From the NCBI GenBank assembly GCA_951406725.2, contig OX597820.1, positions 4,464,001 to 4,528,000 on the forward strand: DNA of 64,000 nt, written 5' to 3'. Of the stretch, positions 27,961 to 60,994 are shown in pieces. This stretch comes from Octopus vulgaris (Eukaryota). The translations under genes and the position numbers were made by a program. The first letter of the stretch is position 1. Each line of letters starts with the position of its first letter. The notes below the pieces were generated by a model. That model searched no databases. It worked only from the letters and a program-made list of their open reading frames with translations, and had not been told where the DNA came from.

Positions 27961-27970
27961 ATTGATTATA

Positions 27971-28794
27971 CAGAGGGTGCGGACAGTATTTGAGGACCCA
28001 TGCAGTTTTAGTCATTACTAGCAATATCGCCCGGCGTTGCTCGGGTCTGTAAGGGAAATAACTATATAAGCATTTTTAGAGTTATAGCCAAAAAATAGCA
28101 AAAAAATGCATTAAAAATGGAATAAAAATGATGGTAAATTTTTTTTTAAATCGTTGACTCATCGTAGACATTTTTAGAGAGTTACTTCCCTTATATAATA
28201 GCGAAAAAATGCATTAAAATGGAAAAAAATGATGGTAAATTATTTTAAAAATCGTAGACTCATCGTAGACGTGCGCTAATACCCAGAAGGGCTCGATATG
28301 AATCACGACTATAAGATACCCGGTTTTGGTTAAACTGCACCGCAAAATGTGGGAGTAGTTAGGAATCTAAATCGTAGGAGACAGACACACAACTTCACTT
28401 TTATATATAAAGATTTTATTTGACTAATTTTTATTGAACTTCTATTTCAGAACATTACAATGACAGGCCCTATGCTTAGTAATGAAATGAAAAGCCATGC
28501 TGTGATTGTGGCTGATTTAGAAATTTCTGCAAGATCTTTTGTCCACAAGATTTGGTGTGAGTCAGAGAAAGATGATCGAAGTATATCACCTGTATCAAAA
28601 TGTAAAAAACATTCCAAACACTCTGATTCTATCAAGACACATGAATTTATTCAGGAAGTTAAGCAAAACATTGAAGATAATCCAAGAAAATCAATGAAGG
28701 TCAATTGCAAAAAAAATTGTATGTCAGAAAAAACAATCAGAAATGTTGTACATGAAGACATCAGACACAAGTGATACGGGATGAGGAGAGGTCA
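27971..28794 (+). mobile_element. 5' half of a Tc1/mariner-superfamily (maT-like) transposon: putative left TIR plus degenerate transposase N-terminus
   Basis: TA|CAGAGGGTGCGG start. ORF 28460-28774 has KTHEFIQEVKQNIEDNPRKSM ... MSEKTIRNVVHEDIRHK (second HTH) and continues in frame as *YGMRRG. Confidence 0.75.
28018..28413 (-). mobile_element. Non-autonomous Helitron, copy 3, nested in the transposon 5' UTR
   Basis: Reverse complement of 21737-22146, with A|TC...CTAG|T. Confidence 0.88.
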
Positions 28795-31700
28795 TACGGG
28801 ATGAGGAGAGGTCATACGGGATGAGGAGAGATCATACGGGATGAGGAGAGATCATACGGGATGAGGAGAGATCATACGGGATGAGGAGAGGTTATACGGG
28901 ATGAGGAGAGGTCATACGGGATGAGGAGAGGTCATACGGGATGAGGAGAGTCATACGGGATGAGGAGAGGTCATACGGGATGAGGAGAGTCATACGGGAT
29001 GAGGAGAGGTCATACGGGATGAGGAGAGGTCATACGGGATGAGGAGAGGTCATACGGGATGAGGAGAGGTCATACGGGATGAGGAGAGGTCATACGGGAT
29101 GAGGAGAGATCATAGGGGATGAGGAGAGGTCATACGGGATGAGGAGAGGTCATACGGGATGAGGAGAGGTCATACGGGATGAGGAGAGGTCATACGGGAT
29201 GAGGAGAGGTCATACGGGATGAGGAGAGTCATACGGGATGAGGAGAGGTCATACGGGATGAGGAGAGGTCATACGGGATGAGGAGAGGTCATACGGGATG
29301 AGGAGAGGTCATACGGGATGAGGAGAGGTCATACGGGATGAGGAGAGGTCACACGGGATGAGGAGAGGTCATAGGGATGAGGAGAGGTCATACGGGATGG
29401 GGAGAGGTCATACGGGATGGGGAGAGGTCATAGGGATGAGGAGAGGTCATACGGGATGAGGAGAGGTCATACGGGATGAGGAGAGTCAGACGGGATGAGG
29501 AGAGGTCAAACAGGATGAGGAGAGGTCATACGGGATGAGGAGAGGTCATACGGGATGAGGAGAGGTCATACGGGATGAGGAGAGGTCATACGGGATGATG
29601 AGAGGTCATACGGGATGAGGAGAGGTCATACGGGATGAGGAGAGGTCATATGGGATGAGGAGAGGTCATACGGGATGAGGAGAGGTCATACGGGATGAGG
29701 AGAGGTCATACGGGATGAGGAGAGGTCATACGGGATGGCGATAGGTCATACGGGATGGGGAGAGGTCATACGGGATGAGGAGAGGTCATACGGGTTGAGG
29801 AGAGGTCATACGGGATGAGGAGAGGTCACACGGGATGAGGAGAGGTCACACGGGATGAGGAGAGGTCACACGGGATGAGGAGAGGTCATACGGGATAAGG
29901 AGAGGTCATACGGGATGAGGAGAAGTCATACGGGAAGAGGAGAGTCACACGGAATGAGGAGAGGTCATACGGGATGAGGAGAGGTCATACGGGATGAGGA
30001 GAGGTCATACGGGATGAGGAGAGGTCATACGGGATGAGGAGAGGTCATACGGGATGAGGAGAGGTCCAACGGGATGAGGAGAGGTCAAACGGGATCAGGA
30101 GAGGTCATACGGGATGAGGAGAGGTCATACGGGATGAGGAGAGGACAAACGGGTTGAGGAGAGGTCATACGGGATGAGGAGAGGTCATACGGGATGAGGA
30201 GAGGTCATACGGGATGAGGAGAGGTCATACGGGATGAGGAGAGGTCATACGGGATGAGGAGGGGTCATACGGGATGAGGAGAGGTCATACGGGATGAGGA
30301 GAGGTCATACGGGAAGAGGAGAGGTCACACGGGATGAGGAGAGGTCATACGGGATGAGGAGAGGTCATACGGGATGAGGAGAGGTCATACGGGATGAGGA
30401 GAGGTCATACAGGATGAGGAGAGGTCATACGGGATGAGGAGAGGTCATACGGGATGAGGAGAGGTCATACGGGATGAGGAGAGGTCATACGGGACGAGGA
30501 GAGTCATACGGGATGAGGAGAGGTCATACGGGATGAGGAGAGGTCATACGGGATGAGGAGAGGTCATACGGGATGAGGAGAGTCATACGGGATGAGGAGA
30601 GGTCATACGGGATGAGGAGAGGTCATACGGGATGAGGAGAGGTCATACGGGATGAGGAGAGGTCAAACGGGATGAGGAGAGGTCATACGGGATGAGGAGA
30701 GGTCATACGGGATGAGGAGAGGTCAAACGGGATGAGGAGAGGTCATACGGGATGAGGAGAGGTCATACGGGATGAGGAGAGGTCAAACGGGATGAGGAGA
30801 GGTCATACGGGATGAGGAGAGGTCATACGGGATGAGGAGAGGTCATAGGGGATGAGGAGAGGTCATACGGGATGAGGAGAGGTCACACGGGATGAGGAGA
30901 GGTCAAACGGGATGAGGAGAGGTCATACGGGATGAGGAGAGGTCATACGGGATGAGGAGAGGTCATACGGGATGAGGAGAGGTCATACGGGATGAGGAGA
31001 GGTCATACGGGATGAGGAGAGGTCATACGGCATGTGGAGAGTCAAACGGGATGAGGAGAGATCATACGGGATGAGGAGAGGTCATACGGGATGAGGAGAG
31101 GTCATACGGGATGAGGAGAGGTCATACGGGATGAGGAGAGGTCATACGGGATGAGGAGAGGTCATACGGGATGAGGAGAGGTCATACGGGATGAGGAAAG
31201 GTCATACGGGATGAGGAGAGGTCATACGGGATGAGGAGAGGTCATACGGGATGAGGAGAGGTCATACGGGATGAGGAGAGGTCATACGGGATGAGGAGAG
31301 GTCATACGGAATGAGGAGAGGTCATACGGGATGAGGAGAGTCATACGGGATGAGGAGAGGTCATACGGGATGAGGAGAGGTCATACGGGATGAGGAGAGG
31401 TCATACGGGATGAGGAGAGGTCAAACGGGATGAGGAGAGGTCATACGGGATGAGGAGAGGTCATACGGGATGAGGAGAGGTCAAACGGGATGAGGAGAGG
31501 TCATACGGGATGAGGAGAGGTCATACGGGATGAGGAGAGGTCATACGGGATGAGGAGAGGTCATACGGGATGAGGAGAGGTCATAAGGGATGAGGAGAGG
31601 TCATACGGGATGAGGAGAGGTCATACGGATGAGGAGAGGTCACACGGGATGAGGAGAGGTCAAACGGGATGAGGAGAGGTCATACGGGATGAGGAGAGGT

Positions 31701-34700: not shown

Positions 34701-37700
34701 ACAGGTCATACGGGATGAGGAGAGGTCAGACGGGATGAGGAGAGGTCAAACGGGAAGAGGAGAGGTCATACGGTATGAGGAGAGGTCATACGTGATGAGG
34801 AGAGGTCAAACGGGATGAGGAGAGGTCATACGGGATGAGGAGAGGTCATACGGGATGAGGAGAGGTCATACGGGATGAGGAGGGGTCATACGGGATGAGG
34901 AGAGGTCACACGGGATGAGGAGAGGTCATACGGGATGAGGAGAGGTCATACGGGATGAGGAGAGTTCATACGGGATGAGGAGAGGTCATACGGGCTGAGG
35001 AGAGGTCATACGGGATGAAGAGAGGTCACACGGGATGAGGAGAGGTCACACGGGATGAGGAGAGGTCATACGGGATGGGGAGAGGTCAAACGGGATGAGG
35101 AGAGGTCATACGGGATGAGGAGAGTTCATACGGGATGAGGAGAGGTCATACGGGATGAGGAGAGGTCATACGGGATGAGGAGAGGTCATACGGGATGAGG
35201 AGAGGTCATACGGGATGATGAGAGGTCATACGCGATGAAGAGAGGTCATACGGGATGAGGAGAGATCATACGGGATGAGGAGAGGTCATACATGATGAGG
35301 AGAGGTCATACGGGATGAGGAGAGGTCATACGGGATGGGGAGAGGTCATAGGAGATGGGGAGAGGTCATACGGGATGAGGAGAGGTCAAACGGCATGAGG
35401 AGAGGTCATACGGGATGAGGAGAGGTCATACGGGATGAGGAGAGGTCATACGGGATGAGGAGAGGTCATACGGGATGAGGAGAGGTCATTCGGGATGAGG
35501 AGAGTCATACGGGATGAGGAGAGGTCATACGGGATGAGGAGAGGTCATACGGGATGAGGAGAGTCATACGGGATGAGGAGAGGTCATACGGGATGAGGAG
35601 AGGTCATACGGGATGAGGAGAGGTCATACGGGATGAGGAGAGGTCAAACGGGATGAGGAGAGGTCATACGGGATGAGGAGAGGTCATACGGGATGAGGAG
35701 AGGTCAAACGGGATGAGGAGAGGTCATACGGGATGAGGAGAGGTCAAACGGGATGAGGAGAGGTCAAACGGGATGAGGAGAGGTCATACGGGATGAGGAG
35801 AGGTCAAACGGGATGAGGAGAGGTCATACGGGATGAGGAGAGGTCATACGGGATGAGGAGAGGTCATACGGGATGAGGAGAGGTCATACGGGTTGAGGAG
35901 AGGTCATACGGGATGAGGAGAGGTCAAACGGGATGAGGAGAGGTCATACGGGATGAGGAGAGGTCATACGGGATGAGGAGAGGTCAAACGGGATGAGGAG
36001 AGTCATACGGGAAGAGGAGAGGTCAAACGGGATGAGGAGAGGTCAAACGGGATGAGCAGAGGTCATACGGGATGAGGAGTGGTCATACGGGATGAGGAGA
36101 GGTCATACGGGATGAGGAGAGGTCAAACGGGATGAGGAGAGGTCATACGGGATGAGGAGAGGTCATACGGGATGAGGAGAGGTCATACGGGATGAGGAGA
36201 GGTCATACGGGATGAGGAGAGGTCATACGGGATGAGAAGAGGTCAAACGGGATGAGGAGAGGTCATACGGGATGAGGAGAGGTCATACGGGATGAGGAGA
36301 GGTCATACGGGATGAGGAGAGGTCAAATGGGATGAGGAGAGGTCATACGGGATGAGGAGAGGTCAAACGGCATGAGGAGAGGTCATACGGGATGAGGAGA
36401 GGTCATACGGGATGAGGAGAGGTCATACGGGAGAGGTGAGAGGTCATACGGGATGAGGAGAGGTCATACGGGATGAGGAGAGGTCATACGGGATGAGGAG
36501 AGGTCATACGGGATGAGGAGAGGTCATACGGGATGAGGAGAGGTCATACGGGATGAGGAGAGGTCATACGGGATGAGGAGAGGTCATACGGGATGAGGAG
36601 AGGTCATACGGGATGAGGAGAGGTCATACGGGATGAGGAGAGGTCATACGGGATGAGGAGAGGTCAAACGGGATGAGGAGAGGTCATACGGGATGAGGAG
36701 AGGTCATACGGGATGAGGAGAGGTCATACGGGATGAGGAGAGGTCAAACGGGATGAGGAGAGGTCATACGGGATGAGGAGAGGTCATACGGGATGAGGAG
36801 AGGTCATACGGCATGAGGAGAGGTCATACGGGATGAGGAGAGGTCATACGGGATGAGGAGAGTCATACGGGATGAGGAGAGGTCATACGGGATGAGGAGA
36901 GGTCATACGGGATGAGGAGAGGTCATACGGGATGAGGAGAGGTCATACGGGATGAGGAGAGGTCATACGGGATGAGGAGAGGTCATACGGGATGAGGAGA
37001 GGTCATACGGGATGAGGAGAGGTCATACGGGATGAGGAGAGGTCATATGGGATGAGGAGAGGTCATACGGGATGAGGAGAGGTCATACGGGATGAGGAGA
37101 GGTCATACGGGATGAGGAGAGAGGTCAAACGGGATGGCGATAGGTCATACGGGATGAGGAGAGGTCATACGGGATGAGGAGAGGTCATACGGGTTGAGAA
37201 GAGGTCATACGGGATGAGGAGAGGTCACACGGGATGAGGAGAGGTCACACGGGATGAGGAGAGGTCACACGGGATGAGGAGAGGTCATACGGGATAAGGA
37301 GAGGTCATACGGGATGAGGAGAGGTCATACGGGAAGAGGAGAGTCACACGGAATGAGGAGAGGTCATACGGGATGAGGAGAGGTCATACGGGATGAGGAG
37401 AGGTCATACGGGATGAGGAGAGGTCATACGGGATGAGGAGAGGTCATACGGGATGAGGAGAGGTCATACGGGATGGGGATAGGTCATACGGGATGGGGAG
37501 AGGTCATAGGGATGAGGAGAGGTTATACGGGATGAGGAGAGGTCATACGGGATGAGGAGAGGTCATACGGGATGAGGAGAGTCATACGGGATGAGGAGAG
37601 GTCATACGGGATGAGGAGAGGTCATACGGGATGAGGAGAGGTCACACGGGATGAGGAGAGGTCATACGGGATGAGGAGAGGTCATACGGGATGAGGAGAG

Positions 37701-40700
37701 GTCATACGGGATGAGGAGAGGTCATACGGGATGAGGAGAGTGATACGGGATGAGGAGAGGTCATACGGGATGAGGAGAGGTCAGACGGGATGAGGAGAGG
37801 TCATACGCAATGAGGAGAGGTCACACGGGATGAGGAGAGGTCATACGGGATGAGGAGAGGTCACACGGGTTGAGGAGAGGTCATACGGGATCAGGAGAGG
37901 TCACACGGGATGGGGAGGTCATACGGGATGAGGAGAGGTCATACGGGAAGAGGAGAGGTCATACGGGATGAGGAGAGGTCACACGGGATGAGGAGAGGTC
38001 ATACGGGATGAGGAGAGGTCACACGGGATGAGGAGACGTCATACGGGATGAGGAGAGGTCATACGGGATGAGGAGAGGTCATACGGGATGAGGAGAGGTC
38101 ATACGGGATGAGGAGAGGTCATACGGGATGAGGAGAGGTCATACGGGATGAGGAGAGGTCATACGGGATGAGGAGAGGTCATACGGGATGGGGATAGGTC
38201 ATACGGGATGGGGAGATGTTATACGGGATGGGGATAGGTCATACGGGATGGGGAGGGTCATAGGGATGAGGAGAGGTCAAACGGGATGAGGAGAGGTCAA
38301 ACGGGATGAGGAGAGGTCATACGGGATGAGGAGAGGTCATACGGGATGAGGAGAGGTCATACGGGATGAGGAGAGGTCATGGGGGATGAGGAGAGGTCAT
38401 GCGGGTTGAGGAGAGGTCATACGGGATGAGGAGAGGTCATACGGTGAGAAGAGGTCACACGGGATGAGGAGAGGTCACACGGGATGAGGAGAAGTCATAC
38501 GGGATGAGGAGAGGTCATACGGGATGAGGAGAGGTCATACGGGATGAGGAGAGGTCATACGGGATGAGGAGAGGTCATACGGGATGAGGAGAGTCATACG
38601 GGATGAGGAGAGGTCATACGGGATGAGGAGAGGTCATACGGGATGAGGAGAGGTCATACGGGATGAGGAGAGGTCATACGGGATGAGGAGAGGTCATAAG
38701 GGATGATGAGAGTCATACGGGATGAGGAGAGGTCATATGGGATGAGGAGAGGTCATACGGGATGAGGAGAGGTCATACGGGATGAGGAGAGGTCATACGG
38801 GATGAGGAGAGGTCATACGGGATGAGGAGAGGTCATACGGGATGAGGAGAGGTCACACGGGATGAGGAGAGGTCAGACGGGATGAGGAGAGGTCATACGG
38901 GATGAGGAGAGGTCATACGGGATGAGGAGAGGTCATACGGGATGAGGAGAGGTCATACGGGATGAGGAGAGGTCATACGGGATGAGGAGAGGTCACACGG
39001 ATGAGGAGAGGTCACACGGATGTGGAGAGGTCACACGGGATGAGGAGAGGTCACACGGGATGAGGAGAGGTCACACGGGATGAGGAGATGTCATACGGGA
39101 TGAGGAGAGGTCACACGGATGAGGAGAGGTCACACGGATGAGGAGAGGTCACACGGGATGAGGAGAGGTCACACAGGATGAGGAGAGGTCACACGGGATG
39201 AGGAGAGGTCATACGGGATGAGGAGAGGTCATACGGGATGAGGAGAGGTCATACGGGATGAGGAGAGGTCATACGGGATGAGGAGAGGTCATACGGGATG
39301 AGGAGAGGTCATACGGGATGAGGAGAGGTCATACGGGATGAGGAGAGGTCATACGGGATGAGGAGAGGTCATACGGGATGAGGAGAGGTCATACGGGATG
39401 AGGAGAGGTCATACGGGATGAGGAGAGGTCATACGGGATGAGGAGAGGTCATACGGGATGAGGAGGTCATACGGGATGAGGAGAGGTCATACGGGATGAG
39501 GAGAGGTCATACGGGATGAGGAGAGGTCATACGGGATGAGGAGAGGTCAAACGAAATGAGGAGAGGTCAAACGGGATGAGGAGAGGTCATACGGGATGAG
39601 GAGAGGTCATGGGGGATGAGGAGAGGTCATGCGGGTTGAGGAGAGGTCATACGGGATGAGGAGAGGTCATACGGGATGAGAAGAGGTCACACGGGATGAG
39701 GAGAGGTCACACGGGATGAGGAGAAGTCATACGGGATGGGGAGAGGTCATACGGGATGAGGAGAGGTCATACGGGATGAGGAGAGGTCATACGGGATGAG
39801 GAGAGGTCATACGGGATGAGGAGAGGTCATACGGGATGAGGAGAGGTCATACGGGATGAGGAGAGGTCATACGGGATGAGGAGAGGTCATACGGGATGAG
39901 GAGAGGTCATACGGGATGAGGAGAGGTCATACGGGATGAGGAGAGGTCATAAGGGATGATGAGAGTCATACGGGATGAGGAGAGGTCATACGGGATGAGG
40001 AGAGGTCATACGGGATGAGGAGAGGTCATACGGGATGAGGAGAGGTCATACGGGATGAGGAGAGGTCATACGGGATGGGGAGAGGTCATACGGGATGAGG
40101 AGAGGTCATACGGGATGAGGAGAGGTCAGACGGGATGAGGAGAGGTCAGACGGGATGAGGAGAGGTCATACGGGATGAGGAGAGGTCATACGGGATGAGG
40201 AGAGGTCATACGGGATGAGGAGAGGTCACACGGGATGAGGAGAGGTCATACGGGATGATGATGGAGAGGTCACACGGATGAGGAGAGGTCACACGGATGA
40301 GGAGAGGTCACACGGGATGAGGAGAGGTCACACGGGATGAGGAGAGGTCACACGGGATGAGGAGAGGTCATACGGGATGAGGAGAGGTCACACGGATGAG
40401 GAGAGGTCACACGGATGAGGAGAGGTCACACGGGATGAGGAGAGGTCACACGGGATGAGGAGAGGTCACACGGGATGAGGAGAGGTCATACGGGATGAGG
40501 AGAGGTCATACGGGATGAGGAGAGGTCATACGGGATGAGGAGAGGTCATACGGGATGAGGAGAGGTCATACGGGATGAGGAGAGGTCATACGGGATGAGG
40601 AGAGGTCACACGGATGAGGAGAGGTCACACGGATGTGGAGAGGTCACACGGGATGAGGAGAGGTCACACGGGATGAGGAGAGGTCACACGGGATGAGGAG

Positions 40701-43700
40701 AGGTCATACGGGATGAGGAGAGGTCACACGGATGAGGAGAGGTCACACGGAAGAGGAGAGGTCACACGGGATGAGGAGAGGTCACACGGGATGAGGAGAG
40801 GTCACACGGGATGAGGAGAGGTCATACGGGATGAGGAGAGGTCATACGGGATGAGGAGAGGTCATACGGGATGAGGAGAGGTCATACGGGATGAGGAGAC
40901 GTCATACGGGATGGGGAGAGGTCATACGGGATGGGGAGAGGTCATACGGGATGAGGAGAGGTTAAACGGGATGAGGAGAGGTAATACGGGATGAGGAGGG
41001 GTCATACGGGATGAGGAGAGGTCATACGGGAAGAGGAGAGTCATACGGGATGAGGAGAGGTCATACGGGATGAGGAGAGGTCATACGGGATGAGGAGAGG
41101 TCATACGGGATGAGGAGAGGTCATACGGGATGAGGAGAGGTCATACGGGATGAGGAGAGGTCATACGGGATGAGGAGAGGTCATACGGGATGAGGAGAGG
41201 TCATACGGGTTGAGGAGAGGTCATACGGGATGAGGAGAGGTCACACGGGATGAGGAGAGGTCACACGGGATGAGGAGAGGTCATACGGGATGAGGAGAGT
41301 CATACGGGATGATGAGAGGTCATACGGGACGAGGAGAGGTCATACGGGATGAGGAGAGGTCATACGGGATGAGGAGAGGTCATACGGGATGAGGAGAGGT
41401 CATACGGGATGAGGAGAGGTCATACGGGATGAGGAGAGGTCATACGGGTTGAGGAGAGGTCATACGGGATGAGGAGAGGTCATACGGGATGAGGAGAGTC
41501 ATACGGGATGATGAGAGGTCATACGGGACGAGGAGAGGTCATACGGGATGAGGGGATGTCATGCGGGATGAGGAGAGGTCATACGGGATGAGGAGAGGTC
41601 ATACGGGATGAGGAGAGGTCATACGGGGTGAGGAGAGGTCATACGGAATGAGGAGAGGTCATACGGGATGAGGAGAGTCATACGGGATGAGGAGAGTCAT
41701 ACGGGATGAGGAGAGGTCATACGGGATGAGGAGAGGTCATACGGGATGAGGAGAGTCATACGGGATGAGGAGAGGTCATACTGGATGAGGAGAGTCATAC
41801 GGGATGAGGAGAGGTCATACGGGATGAGGAGAGGTCATACGGGATGAGGAGAGGTCATACAGGATGAGGAGAGGTCATACGGGATGAGGAGAGGTCATAC
41901 GGGATTAGGAGAGGGCATACGGGATGAGGGGAGGTCATACGGGATGAGGAGAGGTCATACGGGATGAGGAGAGGTCATACGGGATGAGGAGAGTCATACG
42001 GGATGAGGAGAGGTCATACGGGATGAGGAGAGGTCACACGGGATGAGGAGAGGTCACACGGGATGAGGAGAGGTCATAGGGATGAGGAGAGGTCATACGG
42101 GATGAGGAGAGGTCATACGGGATGAGGAGAGGTCAGACGGGATGAGGAGAGGTCATACGGGATGAGGAGAGGTCATACGGGATGAGGAGAGGTCACACGG
42201 GTTGAGGAGAGGTCATACGGGATGAGGAGAGGTCACACGGGATGGGGAGGTCATACGGGATGAGGAGAGGTCATACGGGAAGAGGAGAGGTCATACGGGA
42301 TGAGGAGAGGTCACACGGGTTGAGGAGAGGTCATACGGGATGAGGAGAGGTCACACGGGATGAGGAGACGTCATACGGGATGAGGAGAGGTCACACGGGA
42401 TGAGGAGAGGTCATACGGGATGAGGAGAGGTCATACGGGATGAGGAGAGGTCATACGGGTTGAGGAGAGGTCATACGGGATGAGGAGATGTCACACGGGA
42501 TGAAGAGAGGTCACACGGGATGAGGAGAGGTCACACGGGATGAGGAGAGGTCATACGGGATAAGGAGAGGTTATACGGGATGAGGAGAGGTCATACGGGA
42601 AGAGGAGAGTCACACGGAATGAGGAGAGGTCATACGGGATGAGGAGAGGTCATACGGGATGAGGAGAGGTCATACGGGATGAGGAGAGGTCATACGGGAT
42701 GAGGTGAGGTCATACGGGATGAGGAGAGGTCATACGGAATGAGGAGAGGTCATACGGGATGAGGAGAGGTCATACGGGATTAGGAGAGGTCATACGGGAT
42801 GAGGAGAGGTCATACGGGATGAGGAGAGGTCATACGGGATGAGGAGAGGTCATACGGGAAGAGGAGAGTCACACGGAATGAGGAGAGGTCATACGGGATG
42901 AGGAGAGGTCATACGGGATGAGGAGAGGTCATACGGGATGAGGAGAGGTCATACGGGATGAGGAGAGGTCATACGGGATGAGGAGAGGTCATACGGGATG
43001 GGGAGAGGTCATACGGGATGGGGAGAGGTCATAGGGATGAGGAGAGGTTATACGGGATGAGGAGAGGTCATACGGGATGAGGAGAGGTCATACGGGATGA
43101 GGAGAGTCATACGGGATGAGGAGAGGTCATACGGGATGAGGAGAGGTCACACGGGATGAGGAGAGGTCACACGGGATGAGGAGATCATACGGGATGAGGA
43201 GAGGTCATACGGGATGAGGAGAGGTCATACGGGATGAGGAGAGGTCATACGGGATGAGGAGAGTCATACGGGATGAGGAGAGGTCATACGGGATGAGGAG
43301 AGGTCAGACAGGATGAGGAGAGGTCATACGGGATGAGGAGAGGTCACACGGGATGAGGAGAGGTCATACGGGATGAGGAGAGGTCACACGGGTTGAGGAG
43401 AGGTCATACGGGATGAGGAGAGGTCACACGGGATGGGGAGGTCATCCGGGATGAGGAGAGGTCATACGGGAAGAGGAGAGGTCATACGGGATGAGGAGAG
43501 GTCACACGGGTTGAGGAGAGGTCATACGGGATGAGGAGAGGTCACACGGGATGAGGAGACGTCATACGGGATGAGGATAGGTCATACGGGATGAGGAGAT
43601 GTCATACGGGATGAGGAGAGGTCATACGGGATGAGGAGAGGTCATACGGGATGAGGAGAGGTCATACGGGATGAGGAGAGGTCATACGGGATGAGGAGAG

Positions 43701-46700: not shown

Positions 46701-49700
46701 GAGTCATACGGGATGAGGAGAGGTCATACGGGATGAGGAAAGGTCATACGGGATGAGGAGAGGTCATACAGGATGAGGAGAGGTCATACGGGATGAGGAG
46801 AGGTCATACGGGATTAGGAGAGGGCATACGGGATGAGGAGAGGTCATACGGGATGAGGAGAGGTCATACGGGATGAGGAGAGGTCATACGGGATGAGGAG
46901 AGTCATACGGGATGAGGAGAGGTCATACGGGATGAGGAGAGGTCACGGGATGAGGAGAGGTCACACGGGATGAGGAGAGGTCATACGGGTTGAGGAGAGG
47001 TCATACGGGATGAGGAGAGGTCATACGGGATGAGGAGAGGTCATACGGGATGAGGAGAGGTCATACGGGTTGAGGAGAGGTCATACGGGATGAGGAGAGG
47101 TCATACGGGATGAGGAGAGGTCACACGGGATGAGGAGAGGTCATACGGGATGAGGAGAGTCATACGGGATGATGAGAGGTCATACGGGACGAGGAGAGGT
47201 CATACGGGATGAGGGGATGTCATACGGGATGAGGAGAGGTCATACGGGATGAGGAGAGGTCATACGGGATGAGGAGAGGTCATACGGGATGAGGAGAGGT
47301 CATACGGAATGAGGAGAGGTCATACGGGATGAGGAGTCATACGGGATGAGGAGAGTCATACGGGATGAGGAGAGGTCATACGGGATGAGGAGAGGTCATA
47401 CGGGATGAGGAGAGTCATACGGGATGAGGAGAGGTCATACGGGATGAGGAGAGGTCATACAGGATGAGGAGAGGTCATACGGGATGAGGAGAGGTCATAC
47501 GGGATTAGGAGAGTCAAACGGGATGAGGAGAGGTCATACGGGATGAGGAGAGGTCATACGGGATGAGGAGAGGTCATACGGGATGAGGAGAGTCATACGG
47601 GATGAGGAGAGGTCATACGGGATGAGGAGAGGTCATACGGGATGAGGAGAGGTCACACGGGATGAGGAGAGGTCATAGGGATGAGGAGAGGTCATACGGG
47701 ATGAGGAGAGGTCATACGGGATGAAGAGAGGTCAAACGGGATGAGGAGAGTGTATACGGGATGAGGAGAGGTCATACGGGATGAGGAGAGGTCAGACGGG
47801 ATGAGGAGAGGTCATACGGGATGAGGAGAGGTCATACGGGATGAGGAGAGGTCACACGGGTTGAGGAGAGGTCATACGGGATGAGGAGAGGTCACACGGG
47901 ATGGGGAGGTCATACGGGATGAGGAGAGGTCATACGGGAAGAGGAGAGGTCATACGGGATGAGGAGAGGTCACACGGGTTGAGGAGAGGTCAAACGGGAT
48001 GAGGAGAGGTCACACGGGATGAGGAGACGTCATACGGGATGAGGAGAGGTCACACGGGATGAGGAGAGGTCATACGGGATGAGGAGAGGTCATACGGGAT
48101 GAGGAGAGGTCATACGGGATGAGGAAAGGTCATACGGGATGAGGAGAGGTCATACGGGATGAGGAGAGGTCATACGGGATGAGGAGAGGTCCTACGGGAT
48201 GAGGAGAGGTCATACGGGATGAGGAGAGGTCATACGGGATGAGGAGAGGTCATACGGGATGAGGAGAGGTCATACGGGATGAGGAGAGGTCATACGGGAT
48301 GATGGGAGGTACATAGGGGAGAGGGAGAGGTCATACGGGATGAGGAGAGGTCATATGGGATGAGGAGAGGTCATACGGGATGAGGAGAGGTCATACGGGA
48401 TGAGGAGAGGTCATACGGGATGAGGAGAGGTCATACGGGATGGCGATAGGTCATACGGGATGAGGAGAGGTCATACGGGATGAGGAGAGGTCATACGGGA
48501 TGAGGAGAGGTCATACGGGATGAGGAGAGGTCACACGGGATGAGGAGAGGTCATACGGGATGAGGAGAGGTCACACGGGATGAGGAGAGGTCATACGGGA
48601 TAAGGAGAGGTCATACGGGATGAGGAGAGGTCATACGGGATGAGGAGAGGTCACACGGAATGAGGAGAGGTCATACGGGATGAGGAGAGGTCATACGGGA
48701 TGAGGAGAGGTCATACGGGATGAGGAGAGGTCATACGGGATGAGGAGAGGTCATACGGGATGAGGAGAGGTCATACGGGATGGGGATAGGTCATACGGGA
48801 TGGGGAGAGGTCATAGGGATGAGGAGAGGTTATACGGGATGAGGAGAGGTCATACGGGATGAGGAGAGGTCATACGGGATGAGGAGAGGTCATACGGGAT
48901 GAGGAGAGGTCATACGGGATGAGGAGAGGTCACACGGGATGAGGAGAGGTCACACGGGATGAGGAGAGGGCATACGGGATGAGGAGAGGTCATACGGGAT
49001 GAGGAGAGGTCATACGGGATGAGGAGAGGTCATACGGGATGAGGAGAGTGATACGGGATGAGGAGAGGTCATACGGGATGAGGAGAGGTCAGACGGGATG
49101 AGGAGAGGTCATACGCAATGAGGAGAGGTCACACGGGATGAGGAGAGGTCATACGGGATGAGGAGAGGTCACACGGGTTGAGGAGAGGTCATACGGGATG
49201 AGGAGAGGTCACACGGGATGGGGAGGTCATACGGGATGAGGAGAGGTCATACGGGAAGAGGAGAGGTCATACGGGATGAGGAGAGGTCACACGGGTTGAG
49301 GAGAGGTCATACGGGATGAGGAGAGGTCACACGGGATGAGGAGACGTCATACGGGATGAGGAGAGGTCACACGGGATGAGGAGAGGTCATACGGGATGAG
49401 GAGAGGTCATACGGGATGAGGAGAGGTCATACGGGATGAGGAGAGGTCATACGGGATGAGGAGAGGTCATACGGGATGAGGAGAGGTCATACGGGATGAG
49501 GAGAGGTCATACGGGATGAGGAGAGGTCATACGGGATGGGGATAGGTCATACGGGATGGGGAGAGGTCATAGGGATGAGGAGAGGTTATACGGGATGAGG
49601 AGAGGTCAAACGGGATGAGGAGAGGTCATACGGGATGAGGAGAGGTCATACGGGATGAGGAGAGGTCATACGGGATGAGGAGAGGTCATGGGGGATGAGG

Positions 49701-52700
49701 AGAGGTCATGCGGGTTGAGGAGAGGTCATACGGGATGAGGAGAGGTCATACGGGATGAGAAGAGGTCACACGGGATGAGGAGAGGTCACACGGGATGAGG
49801 AGAAGTCATACGGGATGAGGAGAGGTCATACGGGATGAGGAGAGGTCATACGGGATGAGGAGAGGTCATACGGGATGAGGAGAGGTCATACGGGATGAGG
49901 AGAGGTCATACGGGATGGGGAGAGGTCATACGGGATGAGGAGAGGTCATACGGGATGAGGAGAGGTCATACGGGATGAGGAGAGGTCATACGGGATGAGG
50001 AGAGGTCATAAGGGATGATGAGAGTCATACGGGATGAGGAGAGGTCATATGGGATGAGGAGAGGTCATACGGGATGAGGAGAGGTCATACGGGATGAGGA
50101 GAGGTCATACGGGATGAGGAGAGGTCATACGGGATGAGGAGAGGTCATACGGGATGAGGAGAGGTCACACGGGATGAGGAGAGGTCAGACGGGATGAGGA
50201 GAGGTCATACGGGATGAGGAGAGGTCATACGGGATGAGGAGAGGTCATACGGGATGAGGAGAGGTCACACGGGATGAGGAGAGGTCATACGGGATGAGGA
50301 GAGGTCACACGGATGAGGAGAGGTCACACGGATGTGGAGAGGTCACACGGGATGAGGAGAGGTCACACGGGATGAGGAGAGGTCACACGGGATGAGGAGA
50401 GGTCATACGGGATGAGGAGAGGTCACACGGGATGAGGAGAGGTCACACGGGATGAGGAGAGGTCACACGGGATGAGGAGAGGTCACACAGGGATGAGGAG
50501 AGGTCACACGGGATGAGGAGAGGTCATACGGGATGAGGAGAGGTCATACGGGATGAGGAGAGGTCATACGGGATGAGGAGAGGTCATACGGGATGAGGAG
50601 AGGTCATACGGGATGAGGAGAGGTCATACGGGATGAGGAGAGGTCATACGGGATGAGGAGAGGTCATACGGGATGAGGAGAGGTCATACGGGATGAGGAG
50701 AGGTCATACGGGATGAGGAGAGGTCATACGGGATGAGGAGAGGTCATACGGGATGAGGAGAGGTCATACAGGATGAGGAGAGTCATACGGGATGAGGAGA
50801 GGTCATACGGGATGAGGAGAGGTCATTCGGAATGAGGAGAGGTCATACGGGATGAGGAGAGGTCAAACGAAATGAGGAGAGGTCAAACGGGATGAGGAGA
50901 GGTCATACGGGATGAGGAGAGGTCATGGGGGATGAGGAGAGGTCATGCGGGATGAGGAGAGGTCATACGGGATGAGGAGAGGTCATACGGGATGAGAAGA
51001 GGTCACACGGGATGAGGAGAGGTCACACGGGATGAGGAGAGGTCATACGGGATGAGGAGAGGTCATACGGGATGAGGAGAGGTCATACGGGATGAGGAGA
51101 GGTCATACGGGATGAGGAGAGGTCATACGGGATGAGGAGGGTCATACGGGATGAGGAGAGGTCATACGGGATGAGGAGAGGTCATACGGGATGAGGAGAG
51201 GTCATACGGGATGAGGAGAGGTCATACGGGATGAGGAGAGGTCATACGGGATGAGGAGAGGTCATAAGGGATGAGGAGAGGTCATACGGGATGAGGAGAG
51301 GTCATATGGGATGAGGAGAGGTCATACGGGATGAGGAGAGGTCATACGGGATGAGGAGAGGTCATACGGGATGAGGAGAGGTCATACGGGATGAGGAGAG
51401 GTCATACGGGATGAGGAGAGGTCATACGGGATGAGGAGAGGTCAGACGGGATGAGGAGAGGTCAGACGGGATGAGGAGAGGTCATACGGGATGAGGAGAG
51501 GTCATACGGGATGAGGAGAGGTCATACGGGATGAGGAGAGGTCACACGGGATGAGGAGAGGTCATACGGGATGAGGAGAGGTCACACGGGATGAGGAGAG
51601 GTCACACGGGATGTGGAGAGGTCACACGGGATGAGGAGAGGTCACACGGGATGAGGAGAGGTCACACGGGATGAGGAGAGGTCATACGGGATGAGGAGAG
51701 GTCACACGGGATGAGGAGAGGTCACACGGGATGAGGAGAGGTCACACGGGATGAGGAGAGGTCACACGGGATGAGGGAGAGGTCACACGGGATGAGGAGA
51801 GGTCATACGGGATGAGGAGAGGTCATACGGGATGAGGAGAGGTCAAACGGGATGAGGAGAGGTCATACGGGATGAGGAGAGGTCATACGGGATGAGGAGA
51901 GGTCATACGGGATGGGGAGAGGTCACACGGATGAGGAGAGGTCACACGGGATGTGGAGAGGTCACACGGGATGAGGAGAGGTCACACGGGATGAGGAGAG
52001 GTCATACGGGATGAGGAGAGGTCATACGGGATGAGGAGAGGTCACACGGGATGAGGAGAGGTCACACGGAAGAGGAGAGGTCACACGGGATGAGGAGAGG
52101 TCACACGGGATGAGGAGAGGTCACACGGGATGAGGAGAGGTCATACGGGATGAGGAGAGGTCATACGGGATGAGGAGAGGTCATACGGGATGAGGAGAGG
52201 TCATACGGGATGAGGAGAGGTCATACGGGATGGGGAGAGGTCATACGGGATGGGGAGAGGTCATACGGGATGAGGAGAGGTTAAACGGGATGAGGAGAGG
52301 TAATACGGGATGAGGAGGGGGTCATACGGGATGAGGAGAGGTCATACGGGAAGAGGAGAGTCATACGGGATGAGGAGAGGTCATACGGGATGAGGAGAGG
52401 TCATACGGGATGAGGAGAGGTCATACGGGATGGGGAGAGGTCATACGGGATGAGGAGAGGTCATACGGGATGAGGAGAGGTCATACGGGATGAGGAGAGG
52501 GTCATACGGGATGAGGAGAGGTCATACGGGTTGAGGAGAGGTCATACGGGATGAGGAGAGGTCACACGGGATGAGGAGAGGTCACACGGGATGAGGAGAG
52601 GTCATACGGGATGAGGAGAGTCATACGGGATGAGGAGAGGTCATACGGGACGAGGAGAGGTCATACGGGATGAGGAGAGGTCATACGGGATGAGGAGAGG

Positions 52701-55700
52701 TCATACGGGATGAGGAGAGGTCATACGGGATGAGGAGAGGTCATACGGGATGAGGAGAGGTCATACGGGATGAGGAGAGGTCATACGGGATGAGGAGAGG
52801 TCATACGGGATGAGGAGAGTCATACGGGATGATGAGAGGTCATACGGGACGAGGAGAGGTCATACGGGATGAGGGGATGTCATACGGGATGAGGAGAGGT
52901 CATACGGGATGAGGAGAGGTCATACGGGATGAGGAGAGGTCATACGGGGTGAGGAGAGGTCATACGGAATGAGGAGAGGTCATACGGGATGAGGAGAGTC
53001 ATACGGGATGAGGAGAGTCATACGGGATGAGGAGAGGTCATACGGGATGAGGAGAGGTCATACGGGATGAGGAGAGGTCATACGGGATGAGGAGAGGTCA
53101 TACTGGATGAGGAGAGTCATACGGGATGAGGAGAGGTCATACGGGATGAGGAGAGGTCATACGGGATGAGGAGAGGTCATACGGGATGAGGAGAGGTCAT
53201 ACGGGATGAGGAGAGGTCATACGGGATTAGGAGAGGGCATACGGGATGAGGGAGGTCATACGGGATGAGGAGAGGTCATACGGGATGAGGAGAGGTCATA
53301 CGGGATGAGGAGAGGTCATACGGGATGAGGAGAGGTCATACGGGATGAGGAGAGGTCACACGGGATGAGGAGAGGTCACACGGGATGAGGAGAGGTCATA
53401 GGGATGAGGAGAGGTCATACGGGATGAGGAGAGGTCATACGGGATGAGGAGAGGTCAGACGGGATGAGGAGAGGTCATACGGGATGAGGAGAGGTCATAC
53501 GGGATGAGGAGAGGTCACACGGGTTGAGGAGAGGTCATACGGGATGAGGAGAGGTCACACGGGATGGGGAGGTCATACGGGATGAGGAGAGGTCATACGG
53601 GAAGAGGAGAGGTCATACGAGATGAGGAGAGGTCACACGGGTTGAGGAGAGGTCATACGGGATGAGGAGAGGTCACACGGGATGAGGAGACGTCATACGG
53701 GATGAGGAGAGGTCACACGGGATGAGGAGAGGTCATACGGGATGAGGAGAGGTCATACGGGATGAGGAGAGGTCATACGGGTTGAGGAGAGGTCATACGG
53801 GATGAGGAGATGTCACACGGGATGAAGGAGAGGTCACACGGGATGAGGAGAGGTCACACGGGATGAGGAGAGGTCATACGGGATAAGGAGAGGTTATACG
53901 GGATGAGGAGAGGTCATACGGGAAGAGGAGAGGTCACACGGAATGAGGAGAGGTCATACGGGATGAGGAGAGGTCATACGGGATGAGGAGAGGTCATACG
54001 GGATGAGGAGAGGTCATACGGGATGAGGTGAGGTCATACGGGATGAGGAGAGGTCATACGGAATGAGGAGAGGTCATACGGGATGAGGAGAGGTCATACG
54101 GGATGAGGAGAGGTCATACGGGATGAGGAGAGGTCATACGGGATGAGGAGAGGTCATACGGGATGAGGAGAGGTCATACGGGATGAGAGAGGTCACACGG
54201 ATGAGGAGAGGTCATACGGGATGAGGAGAGGTCATACGGGATGAGGAGAGGTCATACGGGATGAGGAGAGGTCATACGGGATGAGGAGAGGTCATACGGG
54301 ATGAGGAGAGGTCATACGGGATGGGGAGAGGTCATACGGGATGGAGGGAGAGGTCATAGGGATGAGGAGAGGGTCATACGGGATGAGGAGAGGTCATACG
54401 GGATGAGGAGAGGTCATACGGGATGAGGAGAGTCATACGGGATGAGGAGAGGTCATACGGGATGAGGAGAGGTCACACGGGATGAGGAGAGGTCACACGG
54501 GATGAGGAGAGGTCATACGGGATGAGGAGAGGTCATACGGGATGAGGAGAGGTCATACGGGATGAGGAGAGGTGATACGGGATGAGGAGAGGTCATACGG
54601 GATGAGGAGAGGTCAGACGGGATGAGGAGAGGTCATACGGGATGAGGAGAGGTCACACGGGATGAGGAGAGGTCATACGGGATGAGGAGAGGTCACACGG
54701 GATGAGGAGAGGTCATACGGGATGAGGAGAGGTCACACGGGATGGGGAGGTCATACGGGATGAGGAGAGGTCATACGGGAAGAGGAGAGGTCATACGGGA
54801 TGAGGAGAGGTCACACGGGTTGAGGAGAGGTCATACGGGATGAGGAGAGGTCACACGGGATGAGGAGACGTCATACGGGATGAGGATCAGGTCATACGGG
54901 ATGAGGAGAGGTCATACGGGATGAGGAGAGGTCATACGGGATGAGGAGAGGTCATACGGGATGAGGAGAGGTCATACGGGATGAGGAGAGGTCATACGGG
55001 ATGAGGAGAGGTCATACGGGATGAGGAGAGGTCATACGGGATGAGGAGAGGTCATACGGGATGGGGATAGGTCATACGGGATGGGGAGAGGTCATAGGGA
55101 TGAGGAGAGGTCATACGGGATGAGGAGAGGTCAAACGGGATGAGGAGAGGTCATACGGGATGAGGAGAGGTCATACGGGATGAGGAGAGGTCATACGGGA
55201 TGAGGAGAGGTCATGGGGGATGAGGAGAGGTCATGCGGGTTGAGGAGAGGTCATACGGGATGAGGAGAGGTCATACGGGATGAGGAGGAGGTCACACGGG
55301 ATGAGGAGAGGTCACACGGGATGAGGAGAAGTCATACGGGATGAGGAGAGGTCATACGGGATGAGGAGAGGTCATACGGGATGAGGAGAGGTCATACGGG
55401 ATGAGGAGAGGTCATACAGGATGAGGAGAGGTCATACGGGATGAGGAGAGGTCATACGGGATGAGGAGAGGTCATACGGGATGAGGAGAGGTCATACGGG
55501 ATGAGGAGAGGTCATACGGGATGAGGAGAGGTCATACGGGATGAGGAGAGGTCATAAGGGATGATGAGAGGTCACACGGGATGAGGAGAGGTCATACGGG
55601 ATGAGGAGAGGTCATATGGGATGAGGAGAGGTCATACGGGATGAGGAGAGGTCATACGGGATGAGGAGAGGTCATACGGGATGAGGAGAGGTCATACGGG

Positions 55701-58700
55701 ATGAGGAGAGGTCATACATGATGAGGAGAGGTCATACGGGATGAGGGAGAGGTCACACGGGATGAGGAGAGGTCAGACGGGATGAGGAGAGGTCATACGG
55801 GATGAGGAGAGGTCATACGGGATGAGGAGAGGTCATACGGGATGAGGAGAGGTCACACGGGATGAGGAGAGGTCATACGGGATGAGGAGAGGTCACACGG
55901 ATGAGGAGAGGTCACACGGATGTGGAGAGGTCACACGGGATGAGGAGAGGTCACACGGGATGAGGAGAGGTCACACGGGATGAGGAGAGGTCATACGGGA
56001 TGAGGAGAGGTCACACGGGATGAGGAGAGGTCACACGGATGAGGAGAGGTCACACGGGATGAGGAGAGGTCACACGGGATGAGGAGAGGTCACACGGGAT
56101 GAGGAGAGGTCATACGGGATGAGGAGAGGTCATACGGGATGAGGAGAGGTCATACGGGATGAGGAGATGGTCATACGGGAAGAGGAGAGGTCATACGGGA
56201 TGAGGAGAGGTCATACGGGATGAGGAGAGGTCATACGGGATGAGGAGAGATCATACGGTATGAGGAGAGGTCATACGGGATGAGGAGAGATCATACGGGA
56301 TGAGGGAGAGGTCATACGGGATGAGGAGAGGTCATACGGGATGAGGAGAGGTCATACGGGATGAGGAGAGTCATACGGGATGAGGAGAGGTCATACGGGA
56401 TGAGGAGAGGTCATTCGGAATGAGGAGAGGTCATACGGGATGAGGAGAGGTCAAACGAAATGAGGAGAGGTCAAACGGGATGAGGAGAGGTCATACGGGA
56501 TGAGGAGAGGTCATACGGGATGAGGAGAGGTCATACGGGATGAGGAGAGGTCATGGGGGATGAGGAGAGGTCATGCGGGTTGAGGAGAGGTCATACGGGA
56601 TGAGGAGAGGTCATACGGGATGAGAAGAGGTCACACGGGATGAGGAGAGGTCACACGGGATGAGGAGAAGTCATACGGGATGAGGAGAGGTCATACGGGA
56701 TGAGGGAGAGGTCATACGGGATGAGGAGAGGTCATACGGGATGAGGAGAGGTCATACGGGATGAGGAGAGTCATACGGGATGAGGAGAGGTCATACGGGA
56801 TGAGGAGATTTCATACGGGATGAGGAGAGGTCATACGGGATGAGGGAGAGGTCATACGGGATGAGGAGAGGTCATACGGGATGAGGAGAGGTCATAAGGG
56901 ATGATGAGAGTCATACGGGATGAGGAGAGGTCATATGGGATGAGGAGAGGTCATACGGGATGAGGAGAGGTCATACGGGATGAGGAGAGGTCATACGGGA
57001 TGAGGAGAGGTCATACGGGATGAGGAGAGGTCATACGGGATGAGGAGAGGTCATACGGGATGCGGAGAGGTCAGACGGGATGAGGAGAGGTCAGACGGGA
57101 TGAGGAGAGGTCATACGGGATGAGGAGAGGTCATACGGGATGAGGAGAGGTCATACGGGATGAGGAGAGGTCACACGGGATGAGGAGAGGTCATACGGGA
57201 TGAGGAGAGGTCATACGGGATGAGGAGAGGTCACACGGATGTGGAGAGGTCACACGGGATGAGGAGAGGTCACACGGGATGAGGAGAGGTCACACGGGAT
57301 GAGGAGAGGTCATACGGGATGAGGAGAGGTCACACGGATGAGGAGAGGTCACACGGATGAGGAGAGGTCACACGGGATGAGGAGAGGTCACACGGGATGA
57401 GGAGAGGTCACACGGGATGAGGAGAGGTCATACGGGATGAGGAGAGGTCATACGGGATGAGGAGAGGTCATACGGGATGAGGAGAGGTCATACGGGATGA
57501 GGAGAGGTCATACGGGATGAGGAGAGGTCACACGGGATGAGGAGAGGTCATACGGGATGAGGAGAGGTCACACGGATGAGGAGAGGTCACACGGATGTGG
57601 AGAGGTCACACGGGATGAGGAGAGGTCACACGGGATGAGGAGAGGTCACACGGGATGAGGAGAGGTCATACGGGATGAGGAGAGGTCACACGGATGAGGA
57701 GAGGTCACACGGATGAGGAGAGGTCACACGGGATGAGGAGAGGTCACACGGGATGAGGAGAGGTCACACGGGATGAGGAGAGGTCATACGGGATGAGGAG
57801 AGGTCATACGGGATGAGGAGAGGTCATACAGGATGAGGAGAGGTCATACGGGATGAGAGGTCATACGGGATGGGGAGAGGTCATACGGGATGGGGAGAGG
57901 TCATACGGGATGGGGAGAGGTCATACGGGATGAGGAGAGGTTAAACGGGATGAGGAGAGGTCATACGGGATGAGGAGGGGTCATACGGGATGAGGAGAGG
58001 TCATACGGGAAGAGGAGAGTCATACGGGATGAGGAGAGGTCATACGGGATGAGGAGAGGTCATACGGGATGAGGAGAGGTCATACAGGATGAGGAGAGGT
58101 CATACGGGATGAGGAGAGGTCATACGGGATTAGGAGAGGGCATACGGGATGAGGAGAGGTCATACGGGATGAGGAGAGGTCATACGGGATGAGGAGAGGT
58201 CATACGGGATGAGGAGAGTCATACGGGATGAGGAGAGGTCATACGGGATGAGGAGAGGTCACACGGGATGAGGAGAGGTCACACGGGATGAGGAGAGGTC
58301 ATACGGGTTGAGGAGAGGTCATACGGGATGAGGAGAGGTCATACGGGATGAGGAGAGGTCATACGGGATGAGGGAGAGGTCATACGGGTTGAGGAGAGGT
58401 CATACGGGATGAGGAGAGGTCATACGGGATGAGGAGAGGTCACACGGGATGAGGAGAGGTCATACGGGATGAGGAGAGTCATACGGGATGATGAGAGGTC
58501 ATACGGGACGAGGAGAGGTCATACGGGATGAGGGGATGTCATACGGGATGAGGAGAGGTCATACGGGATGAGGAGAGGTCATACGGGATGAGGAGAGGTC
58601 ATACGGGATGAGGAGAGGTCATACGGAATGAGGAGAGGTCATACGGGATGAGGAGTCATACGGGATGAGGAGAGTCATACAGGGATGAGGAGAGGTCATA

Positions 58701-59782
58701 CAGGATGAGGAGAGGTCATACGGGATGAGGAGAGTCATACGGGATGAGGAGAGGTCATACGGGATGAGGAGAGGTCATACAGGATGAGGAGAGGTCATAC
58801 GGGATGAGGAGAGGTCATACGGGATTAGGAGAGGGCATACGGGATGAGGAGAGGTCATACGGGATGAGGAGAGGTCATACGGGATGAGGAGAGGTCATAC
58901 GGGATGAGGAGAGTCATACGGGATGAGGAGAGGTCATACGGGATGAGGAGAGGTCACACGGGATGAGGAGAGGTCACACGGGATGAGGAGAGGTCATAGG
59001 GATGAGGAGAGGTCATACGGGTTGAGGAGAGGTCATACGGGATGAAGAGAGGTCAAACGGGATGAGGAGAGTGATACGGGATGAGGAGAGGTCATACGGG
59101 ATGAGGAGAGGTCAGACGGGATGAGGAGAGGTCATACGGGATGAGGAGAGGTCATACGGGATGAGGAGAGGTCACACGGGTTGAGGAGAGGTCATACGGG
59201 ATGAGGAGAGGTCACACGGGATGGGGAGGTCATACGGGATGAGGAGAGGGTCATACGGGAAGAGGAGAGGTCATACGGGATGAGGAGAGGTCACACGGGT
59301 TGAGGAGAGGTCAAACGGGATGAGGAGAGGTCACACGGGATGAGGAGACGTCATACGGGATGAGGAGAGGTCACACGGGATGAGGAGAGGTCATACGGGA
59401 TGAGGAGAGGTCATACGGGATGAGGAGAGGTCATACGGGATGAGGAAAGGTCATACAGGATGAGGAGAGGTCATACGCAGGATGAGGAGAGGTCATACGG
59501 GATGAGGAGAGGTCATACGGGATGAGGAGAGGTCATACGGGATGAGGAGAGGTCATACGGGATGAGGAGAGGTCATACGGGATGAGGAGAGGTCATACGG
59601 GATGAGGAGAGGTCATACGGGATTAGGAGAGGTCATACGGGATGAGGAGAGGTCATACGGGATGAGGAGAGGTCATATGGGATGAGGAGAGGTCATACGG
59701 GATGAGGAGAGGTCATACGGGATGAGGAGAGGTCATACGGGATGAGGAGAGGTCATACGGGATGGCGATAGGTCATACGGGA
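28771..59782 (+). repeat. Satellite array, 20-bp monomer GTCATACGGGATGAGGAGAG, ~1,550 copies, truncated by an assembly gap
   Basis: Directly visible. Copy number is length divided by 20. No interspersed insertions were seen. Confidence 0.99.
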
Positions 59783-59882
59783 NNNNNNNNNNNNNNNNNN
59801 NNNNNNNNNNNNNNNNNNNNNNNNNNNNNNNNNNNNNNNNNNNNNNNNNNNNNNNNNNNNNNNNNNNNNNNNNNNNNNNNNN
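59783..59882. other. Assembly gap (100 N, true size unknown)
   Basis: Run of N. Confidence 0.99.
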
Positions 59883-60036
59883 CTTTGACCTTCCGTATAA
59901 CAACTACTGCAACAAGATGTCTTGTAAACAGGCTACAAAATTCTGATTCCTTCTTCTCCCTTAGGGATCTTAATTTATTGTCATTTACCAATTTCATTCC
60001 AAATATTATATTACCTACTTATTTAGATTTTGTGAA

Positions 60037-60158
60037 GGCACTTGGCTCAGTGGTTAGAGTGTCGAGCTTACAATCGTGAGGTTATGAGTTCAATTGCCGG
60101 ACCAGGCTGCGCATTGTTTTCTTGAGCAAGACTCTTTATTTCACGTTGCTCCAGTTCC
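60037..60158 (+). mobile_element. tRNA-derived SINE head, family D, truncated
   Basis: TGGCTCAGTGGTTAGAG ... GAGTTCAATTGCC followed by CTTGAGCAAGAC.CTTTATTTC. Confidence 0.65.
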
Positions 60159-60244
60159 AAGAGGATGGAGAGTCTCTGAAGAGGCCACAGGATGTGTGAT
60201 GAAAGATTTCAGACAAAGGACGCTAAGATAAGACCAATAATATA

Positions 60245-60924: not shown

Positions 60925-60967
<43 letters not shown>

Positions 60968-60994
60968 ATATATATATATGTAAGCAGCCCACTT

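Follow-up and report, generated by a model that had tools for sequence, protein, structure and literature searches.

A 20-bp satellite array that begins in register within a decayed Tc1/mariner transposase gene of Octopus vulgaris

The 64,000-nt stretch of Octopus vulgaris DNA analysed here (contig OX597820.1, positions 4,464,001 to 4,528,000; hereafter the window, with positions counted from its first letter) contains a long 20-bp tandem array that begins in register inside a decayed copy of a Tc1/mariner transposon related to DD37D/maT elements (Table 1). Tandem Repeats Finder reports a single array at 28,774-59,782, with a period of 20, 1,557.4 copies and 95% matches; when the array is phased on GTCATACGGGATGAGGAGAG, the first unit falls at 28,771. 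Units identical to the consensus make up 845 of the 1,557, and the mean is 0.63 differences per unit (3% from consensus). Matches to the unit pattern at no more than three mismatches number 1,475, against 0.10 expected in shuffles, which excludes chance as the source of the array pattern. The array has the makeup of a satellite, with 1,557 near-identical, noncoding units arranged head to tail over at least 31 kb; a coding repeat is ruled out by stops in all six frames, the longest stop-free stretch being 53 codons. The 31 kb given as its length in the initial annotation stands as a minimum, since the array stops at the 100-N gap at 59,783-59,882. The start assigned there to the array also holds, whereas the coordinates of the element do not, its target site and terminal inverted repeat (TIR) lying about 490 bp further left. 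No further units were found to the right of the gap (59,883-64,000), and elsewhere in the window there are just chance matches with five mismatches, near 21,105 and 21,356. An Rfam search and exact motif scans of genome contigs and viral contigs each gave 0 matches. The letters that follow the gap directly (59,884-59,902, CTTTGACCTTCCGTATAAC) loosely resemble the reverse complement of the unit (TGACCT...CCGTAT), probably by chance; no 20-mer within five mismatches of the unit occurs there.

Table 1. Positions in the window of the array, its internal blocks and the parent transposon copy
Feature	Position	Strand	Basis or remark
TA target site, left of element	27969..27970	+	same TA/CAG start as TIRs of L001, L002 and L007
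Left TIR (CAGAGGGTGCGGACAGTATTTGAGGAC) of Tc1/mariner element	27971..27997	+	2 extra bases relative to L001
Helitron-like nonautonomous insertion, 396 bp, in 5' region of element	28018..28413	-	termini, empty sites
Decayed N-terminal (DNA-binding) part of transposase, 104 aa, DD37D/maT-related	28460..28771	+	homology
Probable birth segment: first unit plus GTCA, corresponding to the coding stretch S-Y-V-M-R-R-G-Q that follows K	28771..28794	+	loose ends, protein continuations
Array of 20-bp tandem units with consensus GTCATACGGGATGAGGAGAG (1,557 complete)	28771..59782	+	same strand throughout, noncoding
First copy of ~11.3-kb block (568-569 units), made up of two ~5.65-kb (~284-unit) sub-blocks	37022..48430	+	unit alignment
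Second copy of ~11.3-kb block	48330..59752	+	unit alignment
100-N assembly (scaffold) gap truncating the array	59783..59882	.	sequence

The parent element is recognizable by its left end and by the N-terminal part of its transposase. Its left TIR matches one or both TIR arms of L001, L002, L004, L006, L007, L011 and L013 (83-85% over 24-34 bp), which belong to a set of 16 metagenome loci encoding relatives of the transposase. Seven of eight relative loci scanned (L011 lay outside the scan) carry TA/CAG-type inverted repeats of 24-38 nt about 1.2 kb apart, and L008, which was also scanned, has a 25-nt CAGG-type inverted-repeat pair. The frame at 28,460-28,771 translates to ...IRNVVHEDIRHK, its residues ending VVHEDIRHK, and aligns with residues 1-111 of P0001, a 345-aa DD37D transposase, at 47% identity (E 5e-28); a search of cluster representatives with this fragment gave 94 matches at E<=0.001. 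By itself the fragment has no match in Pfam, and the homologues P0003, P0005 and P0017 match HTH_Tnp_Tc3_2 or HTH_23. Through its homology to P0001, the window copy corresponds to the single open reading frame (ORF) with an N-terminal helix-turn-helix (HTH) region that characterizes DD37D/maT elements. P0001, the full-length homologue closest to the fragment, is a DDE_3 protein with the triad D154, D246 and D284; the 37 residues between the last two represent the DD37D spacing, which defines maT (PMC7325037; published systems are described here and below as in the accessible portions of the papers cited). This triad is seen in the homologue, the catalytic half of the window copy falling outside the window. 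Neither the 3' half of the transposase nor a right TIR was found in 59,883-64,000 (tblastn with P0001; blastn with the L001 and L007 elements), and no right TIR was found anywhere in the window; either the gap conceals it or it has been lost. The copy is evidently old and dead: it has a pair of short deletions near 28,513-28,528, compensating frameshifts near 28,697 and 28,718, and a difference of 10-16% from other family copies in contigs of public runs.

The transposase frame passes without a spacer into TGA-TAC-GGG-ATG-AGG-AGA-GGT-CAT, the same translation, uninterrupted by any junction sequence, that the initial annotation had described. The course of other copies through this region was read from contigs of four public runs (of 24 listed) laid on 28,390-28,830, X1 and X3 representing two samples and studies of organism A, X2 organism B, and X6 organism C. 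In 4/4 runs (11, 11, 9 and 9 contigs) contigs aligned to 28,794 then leave the array as ATTCATGTCAGAAAA, a continuation that encodes G-Q-F-M-S-E-K; other copies thus pass once through the unit and go on, the outcome that had been proposed as a check on a transposase origin. In X6, 7 contigs form a loose end behind 28,770 that reads ATCTTACGTGATGAGGAGAGGTCAATTCAT and agrees with the consensus unit at 17/20 positions, as would be expected from the 10-16% difference between copies. The protein continuations tell the same tale: P0001 reads HEDLRYK-SYVMRRGQF, and 63 of 95 proteins align to the end of the query with eight more residues, which begin with SY in 50 of the 63 and read SYxxR[RK]GQ, the kind of motif named in the initial annotation, in 36, although many of these 36 are near-identical SYALRKGQ proteins, so that the counts are not independent. 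The birth segment was also aligned at the DNA level with five relatives. Almost certainly, therefore, the 20-bp unit originates from transposase coding sequence, namely the S-Y-V-M-R-R-G segment. The one fixed difference of note is at unit position 9, where the family has GTG (Val) and the array GGG; we infer that the G is a private change of the window copy, fixed by amplification. Four units (34,785, 35,285, 44,400 and 55,711) have the family's T at this position; their rarity, equal to that of other single changes there, and their placement within the array lead us to interpret them as back-mutations. About 90 bp upstream of the array, ATGAAGGTCAATTGC at 28,694-28,708 resembles the family's GAGAGGTCAATTC that follows the unit (common AGGTCAATT), an internal similarity that may explain why one record per run fits two places in X2 and X6.

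That the resemblance to the transposase arose by chance, or that a pre-existing satellite was inserted into the transposon, is scarcely credible. The comparison covers 20-24 bp only, but the match falls on the exact codon, in register, extends over 17/20 positions of the X6 loose end and then into the common GTCA, and dozens of homologues conserve the motif that it encodes. The unit is, moreover, essentially confined to the transposon in organisms B and C. These findings largely refute both forms of this explanation.

The interior of the array records how it grew. Alignment of the two ~11.3-kb copies, which span the distal 22.7 kb and contain repeats of 62-67 units, pairs 573 units with 310 common versus 143 unshared variants and a difference of 1.25%; the ~5.65-kb sub-blocks differ by 1.8% and random unit pairs by 6.0%, the block percentages leaning low because unit alignment favours common variants. 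Distinct variants and short duplications characterize the proximal 8 kb; T5A, for instance, occurs in 53 units among the first 400 and in 25 among the remaining 1,157. Units 43-64, near the junction, resemble units 414-435 at the start of the distal block (pattern score 41.4; at most 14.5 in 20 shuffles). Such nesting is what unequal exchange, or template switching, leaves when it has acted recently on successively larger scales, and either unequal crossing-over or break-induced template switching would have made the blocks. The expansion was likely recent, confined to one lineage and driven by unequal exchange of ever larger blocks. We propose no function for the array; neutral runaway amplification in a transposon-rich region is the most likely account. 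A quadruplex as the driver of amplification was considered and is a weak candidate: the G4Hunter mean is 0.85 for the array unit, with G at position 9, versus 0.50 with the family's T, and the best window reaches 1.04, the usual cut-off being 1.2. ViennaRNA predicts no quadruplex for the repeat.

As to where the satellite arose, we consider it likely that this noncoding array was born in the window copy itself and that the junction in the assembly is a true one. Two observations weigh against this. None of the listed contigs in the four runs, all of them short, spans the junction between transposase and array; those that reach 28,794 carry 23-38 other letters and so belong to other copies. Furthermore, the units near the junction show 0.51 changes per unit, compared with 0.65-0.69 in distal ones, and there is no old layer at the birth end. 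The first of these bears on the idea that the junction is an assembly artefact generated through the 24 bp in common, that the 11.3-kb duplication represents two haplotypes placed in tandem, or both, as might also be suspected from the end of the array at a scaffold gap and from the small divergence of the two blocks. On the other hand, a variant-resolved array of 31 kb implies long, accurate reads, for which an overlap of 24 bp is far too short; the first unit has a change of its own (GTGA); and the 5.65-kb sub-blocks recur four times, so that at least one level of duplication is real. We regard such an artefact as very improbable for the junction and the duplication taken together, while the top level of duplication (~11.3 kb) could be a haplotype artefact; in either case the transposase origin of the unit would be left standing.

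The missing old layer, together with the likeness of units 43-64 to the distal block, bears rather on the possibility that a transposase-derived satellite was born in another copy and that the present junction came later, by recombination or gene conversion through the 24-bp homology, or else that several copies spawned arrays. The summed repeat depth in X1, roughly 10^4 times that of a single-copy contig, leaves room for more than one locus, and several junctions are described in Chenopodium (PMC7320549), compared with the one observed here. Nonetheless, 24 bp is, as a matter of general knowledge, short for ectopic exchange; copy number is overstated, perhaps some 20-fold, when the depths of short contigs that overlap are added up, such that one locus would fit; and homogenisation alone accounts for the absence of an older layer. 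A birth in some other copy is accordingly held to be unlikely, if less so than an artefact of assembly. Birth in the window copy makes a definite prediction for the far end of the array, which would read ...GGTCA joined to ATTCATGTCAGAA, followed by the 3' half of the transposase, the right TIR and TA.

The array likely began with a single 20-bp tandem duplication inside the already decayed copy; a GTC(A) repeat of 3-4 bp, by letting the template slip, may have caused that first duplicate. Slipped-strand mispairing, or unequal exchange, between short flanking repeats is compatible with a duplication of 20 bp that has GTC(A) at either end, although the flanking-repeat model employs repeats of 5-10 bp (PMC6947457). 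Across five related elements (n=5,854 lag-20 positions), microhomology of at least 4 bp occurs at 2.9% and of at least 3 bp at 7.1%, rates that render the support for seeding at GTCA modest. Several findings count against it. The first unit has GTGA rather than GTCA, and the GTCA of later units can derive wholly from the Gly-Gln codons, so that the consensus is no proof of the Ser codon. In loose ends behind 28,770 (10 contigs in X1, 7 in X6) and behind 28,772 (10 in X1, 10 in X2, 9 in X3) the Ser codon is TCT, the copy-variant evidence covering 40 rows out of 137, with no row beyond 28,750. The family is thus mixed at this codon, and a change from TCA to TGA would still account for the first unit in one step. 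Four of the 16 related loci (L004, L008, L010 and L012) carry a lag-20 repeat of at least 4 bp at this place with no duplication, showing that the repeat is not sufficient, and each element has 93-137 short repeats at lags of 10-30. Slippage at GTCA, which the initial annotation had put forward as the seeding event, therefore fits the duplication with modest microhomology and is set back by the first unit, the TCT codons and the undisturbed relatives; we give it an even chance. The GTCA repeat may have permitted the duplication without explaining why runaway growth took place at the birth segment.

The distribution of the repeat among the sampled organisms points to amplification in one of them. 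Summed contig depth at 28,795-28,809 is 617,257 in X1, 76,144 in X3, 93.8 in X2 and 0 in X6, and its ratio to the conserved transposase bin at 28,750-28,764 is 28.6, 11.8, 0.008 and 0, respectively. The transposon family is also present in organisms B and C, where it has deletion joints in common with A (for instance, the joint from 28,513 to 28,590 has identical intervening letters in X1, X2 and X6), which makes the three close relatives. Contig depth is not copy number, and contigs show presence, not absence; even so, a contrast in depth of more than 1,000-fold argues for amplification in organism A only. The large array looks recently amplified and lineage-restricted. The window itself probably comes from organism A, as X1 holds 0.63 of the sampled words as well as the repeat. 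In organism B, X2 shows single-copy-like depths of 94, 52 and 15 across 28,795-28,830, where X6 has none; because parent copies would stop at 28,794, depth beyond that point hints at a short tandem in B, contamination or misplacement being possible sources as well. Tentatively, then, the locus may display, across sister species, three stages of a birth: one unit in the family, a seed tandem of 2-3 units in B, and in A a runaway array that exceeds 1,500 units and has incipient higher-order blocks, its run-up helped by the T-to-G change that adds a GGG tract. Were this so, it would constitute a datable natural experiment on the passage from chance duplication to satellite.

The 5' region of the element bears an insertion of its own, with 5' TC and 3' CTAG, sitting between A and T with no duplication and with a hairpin near its 3' end, which by the usual rules for Helitron ends we take to be Helitron-like. 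Other copies are free of it, ...TTTAGTCATT being joined straight to 28,413 in 4/4 runs (17-22 contigs each), and the ~20-fold jump in contig depth in the bins at 28,390-28,419 indicates that the insert is very high-copy. It provides a locus-specific marker for the orthologous copy in other species. An origin of the array by Helitron rolling-circle activity is ruled out, since the array contains no Helitron sequence and lies on the 5' side of the insert.

More generally, the flanks of the array consist of retroelement and transposon relics, and no host gene was recognized in the window. A second, separate relic of a DD37D-like transposase at 10,732-11,132 (-) retains the catalytic half (QQDSAPCH...SP..PFDY), with identities to P0001 of 51% and 36% in two frames; being upstream and on the opposite strand, it is not the half that the 28-kb copy lacks. 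The others include the relic of a GIY-YIG endonuclease ORF, presumably Penelope-like, at 6,872-8,023 (-), a zf-RVT fragment of a retroelement at 14,160-14,756 (+), and a broken long interspersed nuclear element with endonuclease and reverse transcriptase parts at 18,422-21,556 (-). Smaller tandem arrays occur at 12,354-13,520 (200-bp unit x 5.8, 98% matches), at 6,167-6,626 (units of ~198/86/112 bp) and at 23,127-23,327 (63-bp x 3.2); by eye, the 200-bp and 63-bp units resemble a dispersed repeat at ~61,050-61,440. In the host genome, dispersed elements may often have been turned into tandem repeats.

Among known systems, that nearest to the window array is the CficCl-61-40 satellite of Chenopodium, derived from the tnp2 transposase of the CACTA-like transposon Jozin (Belyayev et al. 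2020, PMC7320549). There a start monomer of ~40 bp is a fragment of tnp2 with the array attached, as confirmed by polymerase chain reaction (PCR) and nanopore reads. The window presents the same arrangement: a short unit taken from inside the transposase ORF of a DNA transposon, a start monomer in the same orientation, an array attached to it, and a like degree of similarity to the parent (82-95% in CficCl-61-40, 17/20 for the octopus unit). The two differ in host and superfamily (plant and CACTA, as opposed to Tc1/mariner and apparently animal), in unit length (~40 bp versus 20 bp), and in the number of attached units (8-125, up to 5 kb, at several loci, versus at least 1,557 with nested blocks). 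Complete tnp2 domains in Chenopodium are without the monomer start motif, whereas here other copies carry the unit exactly once in a conserved motif; CficCl-61-40 is genus-wide, whereas, of the three organisms compared, one shows amplification of the window satellite; and the junction validated by PCR and nanopore in the former is known in the latter from the assembly alone.

Reviews trace repeats derived from transposable elements mostly to TIRs, to LTRs (long terminal repeats) and to untranslated regions, with some from retroelement ORFs and, in the accessible text, one from a DNA-transposase domain, the Chenopodium satellite (PMC9659126, PMC12628747). Minisatellites of such origin include human repeats from Alu, endogenous retroviruses and L1, the Alu cases averaging 2.3-2.4 units (PMC3389668), and, in the mouse, Ms6-hm and Hm-2, derived from MaLR LTRs, as well as the B1-derived (GGCAGA)n (PMC9659126, PMC6947457). 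What the window array has in common with these is the in-place duplication of a short unit within a dispersed element, as in the slippage model of Haber and Louis (PMC6947457), in which the microhomology is longer than the 3-4 bp found here. Their sources, however, are retroelements and mostly noncoding, whereas the window array comes from a DNA-transposase ORF and is ~600-fold longer than the Alu average. Its parent resembles DD37D/maT elements (PMC7325037) in the TA target, a TIR of ~27 bp like that of relatives of ~1.25 kb, and the N-terminal HTH region, and departs from them in being a dead 5' half. In the literature searched, from which subscription journals are largely missing, we found no occurrence of the 14-nt core of the unit or its reverse complement, and no earlier report of the window repeat or of a satellite derived from a Tc1/mariner ORF.

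The starts of satellites are usually inferred from loose similarity to transposons, once their birthplaces are gone. In this case other copies supply every base of the ancestral single-copy state, the junction is in register, and related organisms have the same transposon without the large array; the first duplication, the timing of amplification and the growth of blocks thereby become testable by long reads. The array would also serve as a species-diagnostic marker. The unusualness claimed for it in the initial annotation is lessened by the direct precedent in Chenopodium, and what persists of that claim is a cleaner and longer case, from an animal. As a corollary, the route seen in Chenopodium, from transposase ORF to satellite, would be no peculiarity of plants or of CACTA elements. 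The window array works like the Chenopodium system: the mechanism is not new, and what it adds is an unusually clean and testable record of a birth.

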